From Xanthobacteraceae bacterium (GTDB lineage: Bacteria; Pseudomonadota; Alphaproteobacteria; Rhizobiales; Xanthobacteraceae), in contig DATNNI010000178.1 in NCBI GenBank assembly GCA_035601915.1, forward strand, positions 1 to 37,515: 37,515 nucleotides of DNA, given 5' to 3'. Position 1 is the first letter of the stretch. The number at the start of each line of letters is the position of its first letter. The notes below the pieces were generated by a model, which worked only from the letters and a program-made list of their open reading frames with translations, was not told the origin of the DNA and searched no databases. Shown one piece after another: positions 19,841-25,392 of this stretch. The translations under genes and the position numbers were made by a program.

Positions 19841-20551
19841 ATGTCAGGCGCCGCAGCCCTCGAGATCGTTCCGGTCGAACGCGTGGAGATTACCGTCGCG
19901 CCGTGGCAATGGGAGTTTGCCGTCAAACGGCGTGCCGAGATCGAGGCCCACTTTGCCGCACGGCAGGAGCGGCAGCCGGCGCTGTGGAACGGTCGCGTGC
20001 TGCTGCTCAGGGACTACCGGATTGAAAACGGCTTGCTGAGCGGCTCGAGTTTCGAGACCGACTTCGCGAGCTTTGTGGCCTGGCGCGACTGGGACTTCCC
20101 CGACCGTGACGTTTTCAATGTTTTCGCGATGGCGGCCGTGCGCGGCGCTGACGGCGGTTATCTGCTTGGAGAGATGGCCGATCACACGGCTTCAGCGGGG
20201 TTCCTCTACTTTCCTTGCGGGACGCCGGATCCGAAGGACGTCACCGACGGCATGCTCGACCTCGGCGGCAGCGCCGCCCGCGAGCTTTTCGAAGAGACCG
20301 GCATTGACATCACCAAGCTTTCGGCGTGGCCGGGTTGGAGCTTGGTGCGCGAGCAGAATTTTATCGCGCTCATCAAAAGCTTTGCCTCAGCCGAGCAGGC
20401 GCAGGACCTTCGCGCGCGCGTGATGCGTTACCTCGCCTCGGGCGCGCACCCGGAACTCTCCGATATCCGCATCGTACGGGATCGCGGTGATCTGACGGCG
20501 CAAATCCCCGGATTCGTCATTACCTTTCTCGAAAGCATTTGGAGCGGATAA
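19841..20551 (+). CDS. NUDIX-family hydrolase (atypical, with N-terminal extension)
   Basis: Nudix box-like GGSAARELFEETGID in the 236-aa ORF. Confidence 0.7.
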   Translation: MSGAAALEIVPVERVEITVAPWQWEFAVKRRAEIEAHFAARQERQPALWNGRVLLLRDYRIENGLLSGSSFETDFASFVAWRDWDFPDRDVFNVFAMAAVRGADGGYLLGEMADHTASAGFLYFPCGTPDPKDVTDGMLDLGGSAARELFEETGIDITKLSAWPGWSLVREQNFIALIKSFASAEQAQDLRARVMRYLASGAHPELSDIRIVRDRGDLTAQIPGFVITFLESIWSG

Positions 20552-21496: not shown

Positions 21497-21581
21497 CGCC
21501 TGCCGTTGGTCAGTGCCGCGCACCAGAGGCAGCTTCACACGGCAAGCCGATCACACTAGAATCGCAACCTGCACCAAACCG

Positions 21582-22376
21582 ATGGCCCGGCGCGTGAAGT
21601 TTACTGTGAAAGCATCGACGGCATTTCTTGTTTCGGGCGCCTTGATTGTTGCGATGTCCGTTCTCTCTCGGGCTTGGGCCGCTCCTCCCGACTTGGACGG
21701 CGTGTGGCTTCCGGACGTCCAGGATCAAAAGCGACAGGAGAAGGAAAACGTGCCGCCGTGGACGCCGGCGGTGCAGCTGCAAATTGCGCATTTGGCCGCC
21801 GAGGAAAAAGCGGGCCGGCCGTTTCTCGTGCTCAGCCATTGTTTGCCGCACGGCATGCCGAGCTGGATGTTGATCACCCACAATGCGTTCGAATGGCTGA
21901 CCACGCGCGGCCGCATCACGCTGCTTGGAGAGGTCGACGGCAACCGCATGCGGCGGATCTACACGGACGGTCGTCCGCACCCCGAAGACCCTGATCTGAC
22001 GCTGCACGGACACTCAATTGGTCATTGGGAGGGCGACGTCCTGGTCGTCGACACCACCGCCGTAGCACCCCAGGCCTACCTTGCGATCAGCGAAGCGGTC
22101 GGCGTTCCTAACAATGGAAACATGCATATTGTCGAGCAATTCCACCTTGCCGCCGCGAACGTCCTGCACGACGATCTGGAAATCACAGCGCCGAAAGTAT
22201 TGACCGGACCCTGGAAGACCAAGCGTATTTTCCGGCGGTATCCGGATCGGCACTACGAGATCACCGAAGGCGAGTGCGAACAGGAGGACCTCGTCCCCGA
22301 GAAAGATCAATTCGGCGACGACATATTCGTATCGCATCCGCAAAACCCGGACGGATCGGTCCGGACCGCGAAATGA
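21582..22376 (+). CDS. secreted hypothetical protein (gene 1 of the five-gene operon)
   Basis: Internal ATG 21582 of track ORF 21513..22376. Signal peptide ...VAMSVLSRAWA|AP. Motifs HCLPHGMPSWM, RRIYTDGRPHPEDP and GHSIGHWEGDVLVVDT. I know no characterised family. The start codon choice is uncertain because the RBS is weak. Confidence 0.65.
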   Translation: MARRVKFTVKASTAFLVSGALIVAMSVLSRAWAAPPDLDGVWLPDVQDQKRQEKENVPPWTPAVQLQIAHLAAEEKAGRPFLVLSHCLPHGMPSWMLITHNAFEWLTTRGRITLLGEVDGNRMRRIYTDGRPHPEDPDLTLHGHSIGHWEGDVLVVDTTAVAPQAYLAISEAVGVPNNGNMHIVEQFHLAAANVLHDDLEITAPKVLTGPWKTKRIFRRYPDRHYEITEGECEQEDLVPEKDQFGDDIFVSHPQNPDGSVRTAK

Positions 22377-22780
22377 GGAAAGCAAAGGTGTTGCAAAAAA
22401 TCGTTTTCATCGCGGCCGCGTTGACGTTTGCTCTGGGCCGTGCGGCGTCCGCGCATCACTCCGGCGCTGCCTACGATATGGACCATCCGCAGACGCTGGA
22501 AGGCAGCGTCAAAACGGTGAACTGGACCAACCCGCATATCACCTTCGTCATTGAGTCCGATGCAAAGGACGGTAAGCCGGCAGAGACCTTGGTGTTCGAA
22601 GTTTCCAGTCCCGGAGTTTTGACTCGCTCCGGCTGGACCAAGCATTCGCTGCAGCCGGGAGATCACGCGGTATTCCATTACGCCCCGCTGCGCGACGGCA
22701 GGCCAGGCGGCTTTTTGATGAAAGTGACCCTGCCGGACGGCAAGGAATTGAGTTTCAGCTTTTCGCCCACCGAACAGTGA
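22373..22780 (+). CDS. small secreted protein, DUF6152-like (gene 2)
   Basis: ATG 22373 overlaps the upstream stop (ATGA). Signal peptide MRKAKVLQKIVFIAAALTFALGRAASA|HHSGAAYD. VNWTNPHITF...RSGWTK..LQPGD matches my memory of DUF6152. Confidence 0.75.
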   Translation: MRKAKVLQKIVFIAAALTFALGRAASAHHSGAAYDMDHPQTLEGSVKTVNWTNPHITFVIESDAKDGKPAETLVFEVSSPGVLTRSGWTKHSLQPGDHAVFHYAPLRDGRPGGFLMKVTLPDGKELSFSFSPTEQ

Positions 22781-22784
22781 CGTT

Positions 22785-23291
22785 ATGACAGGCGCCATCG
22801 TCGGCGACTTTGCTAAGTGGCTCGGGTCGACCTCGCTGAGCCACGCGATTCAGACTGCCGGCTGGATCATTCCGGCGCTGCAGACGATTCATATTCTCGG
22901 CATCGCCGTCCTGTTCTTCTCAGCGGTCATCGTCGACCTGCGCCTATGGGGCGTGCTGGAGCGTGACGTTGCGCTCCGCAACGTGGCACGGCGGTTTCTG
23001 CCGGTAATATGGCCTACGGTGCTGGTCCTCCTACTTACCGGAAGCTTCCTCATTATCGGCGAGCCGCGGCGATCGCTGTTGAACAGCGCCTTCTATCTGA
23101 AGATGGCGCTGCTCGCCTTCGCGCTTGTGCTTACGGTCATCCTGCAATGGTCGCTGTCAGCCGTCCCCGAATTCTGGGAGAAGGATCGCGGCCGGCGCAT
23201 CGCGGGGCGTTTCGCGGCGACACTCTCCATCCTGGCCTGGTGCTCTATCATCTTTGCCGGCCGCTGGATCGCCTATACGCAGGTCGGATGA
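22785..23291 (+). CDS. 4-TM membrane protein, DUF6644-like (gene 3)
   Basis: 168 aa with four hydrophobic helices. Motifs PALQTIHILGI, VDLRLWGV and FAGRWIAYT. Confidence 0.75.
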   Translation: MTGAIVGDFAKWLGSTSLSHAIQTAGWIIPALQTIHILGIAVLFFSAVIVDLRLWGVLERDVALRNVARRFLPVIWPTVLVLLLTGSFLIIGEPRRSLLNSAFYLKMALLAFALVLTVILQWSLSAVPEFWEKDRGRRIAGRFAATLSILAWCSIIFAGRWIAYTQVG

Positions 23292-23794
23292 TGCAAGGCT
23301 TCAGCGACCTCGTCGCTTTCTTCGAGGACAGTAGCCTCGCCGACGCCATCCGCGAGAACGATGTGCTGTTTCCGTCGATCGAATCCGTGCACGTGCTGGC
23401 GATCTGTCTTGTCGTCGGCTCGATCATGGCGGTGGATCTCAGGCTCCTCGGGATCGCCTCGGTGAAGCGTCCGGTGAGCGCCATCACGCGCGGTATTTTG
23501 CCGCTCACATGGGGCGCGTTCGTGGTTGCGGCGGCATCCGGTTTCCTGATGTTCATCTCCAACGCGACCAAATATCTCGGCAACGACTATTTTGTCGCCA
23601 AGCTTTGTCTGATCGCCGCCGCCGGACTGAACATGCTGGTGTTTCACTTCATCAGCGCGGGGAATCAGCCGCGCTGGGACGCGCAAGCGCGGCTCCCGAT
23701 CTCTGCGCGGCTTGCCGGCGGCATCTCGATGTTGCTCTGGATCGCGGTTGTCGCTTGCGGGCGCTGGATCGGGTTCACCATGGAGGCCGGATGA
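23288..23794 (+). CDS. 4-TM membrane protein, paralog of the preceding gene (gene 4)
   Basis: ATG 23288 overlaps the upstream stop (ATGA). Motifs align with gene 3: PSIESVHVLAI, VDLRLLGI, ACGRWIGFT. Confidence 0.75.
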   Translation: MMQGFSDLVAFFEDSSLADAIRENDVLFPSIESVHVLAICLVVGSIMAVDLRLLGIASVKRPVSAITRGILPLTWGAFVVAAASGFLMFISNATKYLGNDYFVAKLCLIAAAGLNMLVFHFISAGNQPRWDAQARLPISARLAGGISMLLWIAVVACGRWIGFTMEAG

Positions 23795-23795
23795 G

Positions 23796-24260
23796 ATGAC
23801 CGGCCGCCTTTTACCCATCGCGTTTGCCACCGCGATCGTTGCCGCCGCGACTCTACGGCCATTGCTGGGCGAAGAAGTCGCGCACATGCCGCCGTTTCAG
23901 CCCCAAGTCGACATGAAAACCTTCATGGAGCATGTGCTGACGCCGGCGGCAAAGATTGTTTGGGGTGTCAATGCCGTGGTAATCGATCCCAAAGGCGAGC
24001 GCGATCTGTCGCCAAAATCGGACGCCGATTGGGAAGAGATCGTGAGCGGCGCGGCGACGCTCGCCGAAGCGGCGAACGCCCTGATGATTCCGCAGCGCGC
24101 ACTCGATCCGCAATGGAACGCCTACGCGAAAAAACTGGGCGACGCCGCGGCCAAGGCTTATATGGCCGCCGAGGCCCACGATCTAAAAACGATTTCCGCG
24201 ATCAGCGACCGGCTCGACGAAATTTGCGCCGCTTGCCATCGGCATTACGGAATCGAATGA
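23796..24260 (+). CDS. class II (cytochrome c'/c556-like) c-type cytochrome, secreted or membrane-anchored (gene 5)
   Basis: ATG 23796, one nt after the upstream stop. N-terminal hydrophobic segment. About 125 aa that looks helical, with a single CAACH heme motif 6 residues from the C-terminus (aa 144-148). Confidence 0.7.
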   Translation: MTGRLLPIAFATAIVAAATLRPLLGEEVAHMPPFQPQVDMKTFMEHVLTPAAKIVWGVNAVVIDPKGERDLSPKSDADWEEIVSGAATLAEAANALMIPQRALDPQWNAYAKKLGDAAAKAYMAAEAHDLKTISAISDRLDEICAACHRHYGIE

Positions 24261-25053: not shown

Positions 25054-25392
25054 CTATTCCGCCGCCTCGGCGGAAACGGTCGGCGGAAATTCCGTCGTAG
25101 TGCCGGCTTCGTTGTCGACGATCATCAGCAAATCGAAATAGGTGATGACGGGCGTCGAGCCGGTGCGTTTTTCGATATTGGCACGCCAGGCCGCGTCGTG
25201 CCCGCGTTGTGCCGCCTCCTTGGACGGCCAGATGTAAAAGGCGCCGCCGGTGCCGTTTTCGCCGGCGATATAGTGCTTGCGGATCAGTTCCTTGTTGACC
25301 CGCCACTTCACCGCCGTCGGGCGCGCGTCTTCCAGTATTTGCTCGCGGGTCCAGCCGGCCGGATATTTGAACTGGACGTACTCGACAATCAT
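25054..25392 (-). CDS. YdhR-like / Dabb-fold (monooxygenase-like) small protein
   Basis: 112 aa with a GGAGG RBS. MIVEYVQFKYP...GGAFYIWPSKEAAQRGHD resembles the YdhR family as I remember it. Confidence 0.6.
   Translation of the reverse strand: MIVEYVQFKYPAGWTREQILEDARPTAVKWRVNKELIRKHYIAGENGTGGAFYIWPSKEAAQRGHDAAWRANIEKRTGSTPVITYFDLLMIVDNEAGTTTEFPPTVSAEAAE

Follow-up and report, generated by a model that had tools for sequence, protein, structure and literature searches.

A five-gene operon-like cassette at positions 21582-24260 of a 37,515-nucleotide stretch from a Xanthobacteraceae bacterium (GenBank assembly GCA_035601915.1, contig DATNNI010000178.1; hereafter the window, with a G+C content of about 61%) belongs to a real, uncharacterised, extracytoplasmic module that is widespread in soil bacteria. 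On gene content across loci, the evolutionary core of the module is a pair of genes, one for a secreted protein family that we call G1 and one for the secreted family DUF6152, and the other cassette members, a pair of DUF6644 membrane proteins and a putative class II type cytochrome c, are accessory. This division was overlooked in the original prediction, which had been made from the letters of the window alone.

Open reading frame (ORF) calling placed five consecutive genes, G1 to G5, on the plus strand of the window, spanning 21582-24260:
21582..22376, plus strand: G1, secreted protein, 264 amino acids (aa), member of a large family without a Pfam model and predicted to be a calycin-like beta-barrel
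22373..22780, plus strand: G2, secreted DUF6152 protein, 135 aa (Pfam PF19649)
22785..23291, plus strand: G3, four-transmembrane DUF6644 protein, subtype 1, 168 aa (Pfam PF20349)
23288..23794, plus strand: G4, four-transmembrane DUF6644 protein, subtype 2, 168 aa (Pfam PF20349), paralog of G3
23796..24260, plus strand: G5, putative class II type monohaem cytochrome c, 154 aa, with a C-terminal C144-A-A-C147-H148 and a conserved M44

The tight packing that had been described for these ORFs was recovered at the same coordinates: ATGA start/stop overlaps lie at 22373-22376 (G1/G2) and 23288-23291 (G3/G4), with a gap of 4 nt between G2 and G3 (22781-22784) and of 1 nt between G4 and G5 (23795). 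By hydropathy analysis, G1, G2 and G5 have a single hydrophobic segment apiece, at the N-terminus, and G3 and G4 have four apiece (1/1/4/4/1 in G1-G5), in line with the expectation that all five products are extracytoplasmic or membrane-bound. Pfam and NCBIfam searches gave no characterised relative for any of the five, again as foreseen; NCBIfam models added nothing for any of G1-G5. Database names for the five families are 'hypothetical protein' or 'DUF family protein', apart from stray automatic labels such as 'CusF', 'cytochrome c556' and 'tryptophan-rich sensory protein', and no paper on DUF6152 (PF19649) or DUF6644 (PF20349) turned up in the library searched. None of the five families recurs elsewhere in the window.

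Conservation of the complete cassette was assessed in a G4-centred metagenome scan of 80 contigs, with the G4 subtype alone as query and close relatives only in its reach. Five complete genes were present on 49 contigs (47 in the order ABCDE, where the letters stand for G1 to G5, one with labels reversed and one with an extra E), and the remaining 31 end within the cassette, so that all 49 contigs of sufficient length keep the five genes together. Across 34 orthologous complete cassettes, the median gaps at the four junctions were 11, 4, -4 and 1 nt; the G3-G4 gap was -4 or -1 nt in 34/34 and the G4-G5 gap 1-2 nt in 30/34. Only about 15 loci share the PPK2 and leuA flanks of the window, the other contexts including mobile-element genes and sphingomonad plasmids, and the cassette therefore stays intact across contexts. 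Within one clade, which we term the Bradyrhizobium/Xanthobacteraceae type, the comparative sequence evidence makes the five-gene unit a conserved operon-like cassette, and the predicted single compact, co-conserved unit is upheld by the 49/49 sufficiently long contigs and the minimal junctions of the 34 cassettes. The overlaps, the tiny conserved gaps and a recurring promoter-like motif (below) argue that the five genes form one transcription unit. In Bradyrhizobium sp. STM 3557 (L003:7209-7673), the order is A-B-C-E, the first DUF6644 gene carries an aberrant tail and the second is gone; this looks like a decayed or rearranged copy of the cassette.

A G1-profile genome scan yielded 80 loci from Alpha-, Beta- and Gammaproteobacteria, Acidobacteriota, Verrucomicrobiota and others, and a census with hidden Markov models (HMMs) iterated from the window proteins was taken over 81 G1-selected loci. 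The census comprised 125 G1-family and 89 DUF6152 genes, with both families at 69/81 loci; of the DUF6152 genes, 83 of 89 have a G1-family gene no more than 400 nt away, in 77 cases on the same strand, and the distance from G1 stop to DUF6152 start is frequently -4 nt. Only 18/81 loci have the DUF6644 pair and 8/81 a class II type cytochrome. The linkage was also found from the other side, DUF6152-centred look-ups returning an adjoining gene of G1 size without Pfam match in 5/5 cases, confirmed by the G1 HMM in the 4/4 for which DNA was available. Co-occurrence of the five families in this order across genomes, a check suggested in the original prediction, holds within one clade, and elsewhere the core consists of G1 and DUF6152 only. 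In loci that have the DUF6644 pair or the cytochrome, these mostly adjoin the core pair in an order that varies (ABCCE, ECCAB, CCAB, BBACC, with C for either DUF6644 gene), and the two DUF6644 subtypes are nearly always paired, G3-type with G4-type, at a junction of -4 or -1 nt. One metagenome-assembled genome labelled Rugosimonospora sp. (L054; Actinomycetota, a Gram-positive genus) carries at least three G1/DUF6152 pairs and a DUF6644 pair; this locus is either a mis-binned contig or an instance of the module outside diderm bacteria.

Function is hinted at most strongly by the His-His that DUF6152 invariably has at its predicted mature N-terminus. G2 passed the Pfam gathering threshold for this family (PF19649; 83.3 bits against a cut-off of 27, E 1.3e-23), and the -3/-1 rule predicts cleavage between ASA and HHSG, giving a mature N-terminus of His-His; mature DUF6152 has about 108 residues. 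In an alignment of about 90 relatives, the residues following the AxA cleavage motif are H28 in 86/86 and H29 in 85/86, and both are invariant in a curated 46-sequence alignment. Further conserved positions are D35, N53-P54-H55 (H55 in 87/88), E76 and R85. In CopC, YcnI and the lytic polysaccharide monooxygenases, an N-terminal His binds metal through its amine and imidazole groups. The families found by 'signal strapping', namely nickel-binding DUF4198, DUF6702 and the anglerases, do likewise (PMC12537917). With its invariant His-His at the predicted cleavage site and its conserved Asp, His and Glu, DUF6152 is a candidate transition-metal binder, and the core pair probably handles a metal ion outside the cytoplasm. 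According to experiments, new metal-binding families can be recognised by an N-terminal His that signal-peptide cleavage exposes (PMC12537917), and DUF6152 has the sequence features of this class, namely a His predicted to be first after cleavage and a further conserved His.

G1 is the more enigmatic member of the core. Searches of Pfam, NCBIfam and PDB sequences left it unmatched, 39 diverse relatives likewise have no Pfam or PDB match, and single-sequence and profile searches of PDB sequences gave nothing significant for G1 or DUF6152. The family is nevertheless large, well outside what chance would give: the word-index search gave 2918 homologs, and at 50% identity there are 5263 representative clusters. 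Using an alignment of 40 diverse representatives, we obtained an AlphaFold (AF2) model of G1 with a pLDDT of 84.9; a model built from 33 close homologs was discarded (pLDDT 56). The Foldseek top 50 for the accepted model are mostly FABP, CRABP and lipocalins, bacterial lipocalins included (best E 2.6e-3), at modest similarity (TM-scores of 0.50-0.57 normalised to target and about 0.3 normalised to query). We accordingly describe the predicted G1 fold as a calycin-like (FABP/lipocalin) barrel. It shares with calycins a predicted 10-12 stranded barrel with an N-terminal helical segment, and differs from them in matching no lipocalin or FABP sequence model, in being about 100 residues longer than FABPs and in having a conserved Cys pair. 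A further, tentative comparison is with NlpE/CutF, a lipoprotein with lipocalin-like and OB-fold domains. The family alignment shows conservation of C87, C232, D37, W42, E104, R124, E185 and R186. Eight G1-family proteins of about 450-530 aa (P0150, P0164, P0174, P0181, P0201, P0214, P0216 and P0253) have two matched stretches each; these relatives of about 500 aa carry no other Pfam domains, and their sequences are consistent with tandem G1-G1 duplications or fusions. Two other long relatives were rejected as gene-call read-throughs, from a neighbouring methyltransferase or into DUF6152, rather than domain fusions, and no informative domain fusion was found among the long G1 relatives.

The resemblance of genes 2 to 4 to DUF6152 and DUF6644, noted in the original prediction, was borne out by the Pfam search for the membrane pair as well as for G2: G3 and G4 passed the DUF6644 (PF20349) cut-off of 27 bits with 41.4 bits (E 2e-10) and 43.3 bits (E 5e-11), respectively. 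As also predicted, they are paralogous four-transmembrane proteins (27% identity, E 2e-22), and the positive-inside rule places both termini of each in the periplasm. H36, G86, F103 and K106 are invariant in DUF6644, and R53, N100, W152 and G159-R160 are nearly so; each paralog has one invariant His close to the periplasmic end of its first transmembrane helix (TM1). Some DUF6644 relatives match DUF2214 as well. At one locus (L171:979-1398), a HemJ-type protein (UPF0093) that matches both the UPF0093 and CopD Pfam models is encoded 600 nt from a DUF6644 pair; as this protein recalls, the CopD-like group takes in haem-binding redox proteins besides transporters.

The assignment of gene 5 to the class II c-type cytochromes is supported by sub-threshold matches and a C-terminal CXXCH, from which we regard G5 as a probable divergent member of that class. 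Cytochrom_C_2 (PF01322) matches it at 19 bits (E 0.003), short of the Pfam cut-off of 26.5, and a ten-sequence G5 profile searched against PDB returned nearly all matches to class II cytochromes (c', c-556 and b562; best E 0.006). The CXXCH is invariant in 68/68 relatives. M44 is conserved in 64/68 relatives, which would fit a six-coordinate His/Met electron carrier better than a gas-binding cytochrome c'. G5 resembles the class II cytochromes c (c', c-556) and cytochrome b562 in its CXXCH at the extreme C-terminus and in a Met within the first predicted helix, and departs from them by about 25 extra residues, by the sub-threshold Pfam score and, in distant relatives, by a lipobox Cys. A lipobox-like Cys follows the signal peptide in the relatives L001:10272-10739 and L010:4180-4713 (VIAC, LLAGC) and is absent from the window G5; judging from these sequences, lineages may differ in whether their G5-type cytochromes have a lipid anchor or are soluble or signal-anchored.

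We tentatively propose that the operon is a self-contained extracytoplasmic metal-capture and redox module, which would work in a CopC/CopD-like manner while lying outside those families. DUF6152 would chelate a transition-metal ion, most likely Cu(II), through its N-terminal amine and the imidazoles of His1 and His2, helped by the conserved Asp, the histidine of Asn-Pro-His and the Glu, and would do so in complex with the G1 barrel protein. Where present, the DUF6644 pair would form a heterodimer of eight transmembrane helices, distantly CopD-like, with its conserved His, Asn, Lys and Arg near the periplasmic face, and would take the ion or electrons at the inner membrane, and the His/Met cytochrome c would shift the redox state of the bound metal, for example from Cu(II) to Cu(I), for hand-over.

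The analogy with CopC/CopD or YcnI/YcnJ, raised in the original prediction, is reasonable as a mechanism but does not extend to family membership; in mechanism, these two systems and the anglerase-permease fusions come closest to the cassette. In both of these copper-uptake pairs, CopC/CopD (YobA/YebZ in E. coli) and B. subtilis YcnI/YcnJ, as in the cassette, a small secreted protein with His first (predicted for DUF6152) is encoded beside a polytopic inner-membrane protein; two four-transmembrane DUF6644 paralogs sum to the eight helices of CopD, DUF6644 gives a weak, sub-threshold match to the CopD Pfam model, and in a marginal alignment of the DUF6644 profile with E. coli YebZ (hhalign, E 0.052, 92 columns) the invariant TM1 His pairs with a YebZ His. 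G2, however, has no Pfam match to CopC (PF04234) or YcnI (DUF1775) at an E of at most 0.1, and its hhalign alignment with E. coli YobA covers only the signal peptide and the His. The Cop and Ycn systems also have no counterpart of the obligate calycin-like partner G1, and the DUF6152 cassette, unlike them, includes a cytochrome c and has no copper regulators or exporters nearby.

Two other comparisons bear on DUF6152. The 'signal strapping' proteins (nickel-binding DUF4198, DUF6702 and permease-linked anglerases, the last fused to HupE/UreJ permeases) are likewise secreted, have His as first mature residue, as predicted for DUF6152, and are paired with a membrane protein, and before they were tested they too were families of unassigned function (PMC12537917). 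They differ from DUF6152 in family and fold, and the paper describing them does not mention DUF6152; moreover, the DUF6152 terminus is His-His and almost fully conserved, compared with 65-79% conservation of the N-terminal His in the 'signal strapping' families, and its partner is separate rather than fused (PMC12537917). CusF/SilF, a periplasmic Cu(I)/Ag(I) chaperone with an OB fold, is similar in size to DUF6152, and the IMG label 'CusF' is attached to one 90%-identity cluster member. The ligands of E. coli CusF are His36, Trp44, Met47 and Met49. These ligand positions are unconserved in DUF6152, there is no Pfam CusF match and there are no CusCBA genes; an hhalign comparison was ambiguous (48% probability, E 2e-4, 79 columns) and a phmmer match to SilF marginal (E 0.4).

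Several observations weigh against a metal-capture function. No CopC, YcnI or CusF model matches DUF6152, and the CopD model (PF05425) reaches G3 only below threshold (20.2 bits against a cut-off of 32.1, E 8e-4) and G4 not at all. The original prediction had expected two soluble proteins rich in metal ligands; this stands for DUF6152 with its His-His and falls for G1, in whose family alignment no histidine and no metal-ligand motif is conserved (Cys, Asp, Glu and Arg are conserved instead). In a neighbour census based on clustering and a Pfam scan of 147 flanking ORFs, no partner outside the five families was recurrent; metal-homeostasis genes (CopA, multicopper oxidase, Cus, Znu, Nik) and metal-sensing regulators do not recur near the pair, whose neighbours are diverse and include NHL-repeat proteins, PQQ dehydrogenases, TonB-dependent receptors and TetR/MarR regulators. 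The G1/DUF6152 pair forms tandem arrays at many loci (BABA, ABAABBAA) in Acidobacteriota and others, and such tandem copies resemble substrate diversification more than metal trafficking. Finally, most loci lack the DUF6644 pair and the cytochrome, so the role of the core pair requires neither. Our confidence in metal capture is kept well short of even by the lack of metal genes nearby, the tandem expansion, the missing metal-ligand signature in G1 and the frequent absence of the membrane and haem parts.

An alternative, which we consider doubtful, is that the module is a periplasmic metalloenzyme, in which DUF6152 supplies a catalytic histidine-brace-like centre and the barrel holds an organic substrate that is small and probably hydrophobic. 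Where they occur, the DUF6644 pair and the cytochrome c would then move electrons between the quinone pool and the active site, and the DUF6644 pair might share a haem b through two conserved His. The paralog expansion and tandem arrays of the pair would suit an enzyme, as would a modelled calycin fold, which is typical of small-ligand binding, and the presence of PQQ dehydrogenases, cytochromes c, FAD oxidoreductases and TetR/MarR regulators among the neighbours; electron delivery would make sense of a cytochrome c dedicated to the cassette and of the one His that each DUF6644 paralog keeps invariant towards the periplasmic end of TM1. Yet neither a candidate substrate nor a recurrent enzyme partner emerged, most loci have no electron carrier beside the pair, and DUF6152, at about 108 mature residues, is below the size of known histidine-brace enzymes. 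A bolder proposal along the same lines is that the G1 barrel and DUF6152 constitute a new, widespread two-subunit class of periplasmic metalloproteins, whose His-His centre oxidises small organic substrates held in the barrel, and to which some lineages add a haem-bridged DUF6644 heterodimer and a class II cytochrome c as electron supply; we think this rather unlikely. The G1/DUF6152 pair is expanded in Acidobacteriota, Steroidobacteraceae, Caulobacterales and Sphingomonadales.

A role in lipid, isoprenoid or quinone handling, or in pure electron transfer, comparable to YceI with cytochrome b561, appears improbable. The barrel would here ferry a hydrophobic molecule between membranes or to the DUF6644 proteins, and the His-His of DUF6152 would be there for contact with another protein or with haem, not for binding a free metal ion. 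This would be compatible with the calycin-like fold modelled for G1, with membrane partners and a cytochrome in the operon, with the two occurrences of YceI-domain genes among the neighbours and with the absence of metal genes nearby, but DUF6152 itself is not hydrophobic, and the His-His that it invariably has exactly where cleavage is predicted, combined with conserved Asp, His and Glu, is the hallmark of a metal site (PMC12537917). It is highly improbable that the five genes adjoin one another with no function in common, or that they are not transcribed together: most G1/DUF6152 loci do lack the DUF6644 pair and the cytochrome, but the five-gene order is kept on every sufficiently long contig and in several genomic contexts, junctions of -4 to +4 nt are conserved, and distant lineages re-order the genes yet keep them adjacent (ECCAB, CCAB, BBACC).

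Two further features, both matched by a consensus scan, frame the operon in the window:
21534..21562, plus strand: promoter-like site (sigma-70-like), TTCACA-17 nt-TAGAAT, its end 20 nt ahead of the G1 start codon
24285..24304, strand not assigned: GC-rich hairpin with an 8-bp stem (7 GC pairs), in the 83 nt that separate G5 from the convergent GST gene

The consensus scan gave one promoter-like site where 0.9 were expected, which is weak by itself; k-mer counting found a similar two-box motif, GCTT(C/T)..C... followed by ACTAG(A/T)AT, upstream of G1 orthologs at many differently flanked loci. Multiple alignment of the upstream regions was too noisy to be informative, and the k-mer counts yielded only the promoter-like motif and one unexplained upstream motif. 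This second conserved motif, (C/G)GGAATGGTGAAGT, lies about 35-45 nt upstream of the promoter-like motif at the metagenome loci L127, L128, L136, L137, L153 and L161, is absent from the window, where the end of the PPK2 gene occupies that position, and may be a regulator site. The hairpin scored as terminator-like on the minus strand, by consensus match only, and may act in both directions.

The genes flanking the operon in the window are housekeeping genes (molybdenum hydroxylase subunit, PEBP, PPK2, GST and leuA) and offer no functional hint. Two conserved ORFs without Pfam match also flank the region, at 25054-25392 (minus strand, 112 aa) and 19841-20551 (plus strand, 236 aa); relatives keep their synteny, at 70-84% and 53-59% identity, respectively. 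Rfam and tRNA scans of the window gave no feature. At other loci, genes for PQQ-dependent dehydrogenases (6 loci, L045:7885-9471 and five more) and NHL-repeat beta-propellers (5 loci, L050:3658-5271 and four more) lie within two genes of G1/DUF6152 pairs, and TonB-dependent receptor genes occur as well, for instance immediately after the pair on a Croceibacterium plasmid (L172); each of these is too infrequent to count as a partner.

The G1 family numbers more than 5000 clusters at 50% identity and has no family model, and DUF6152 and DUF6644 have only DUF entries. Given its invariant N-terminal His-His, DUF6152 is among the cleanest candidates for a new extracytoplasmic metal-binding family, and nothing equivalent to its obligate barrel partner is known from copper, nickel or zinc trafficking. 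A function for the module would bring annotation to thousands of genes of dominant soil bacteria and could point to either a new metal-acquisition route or a periplasmic redox enzyme of a new kind.

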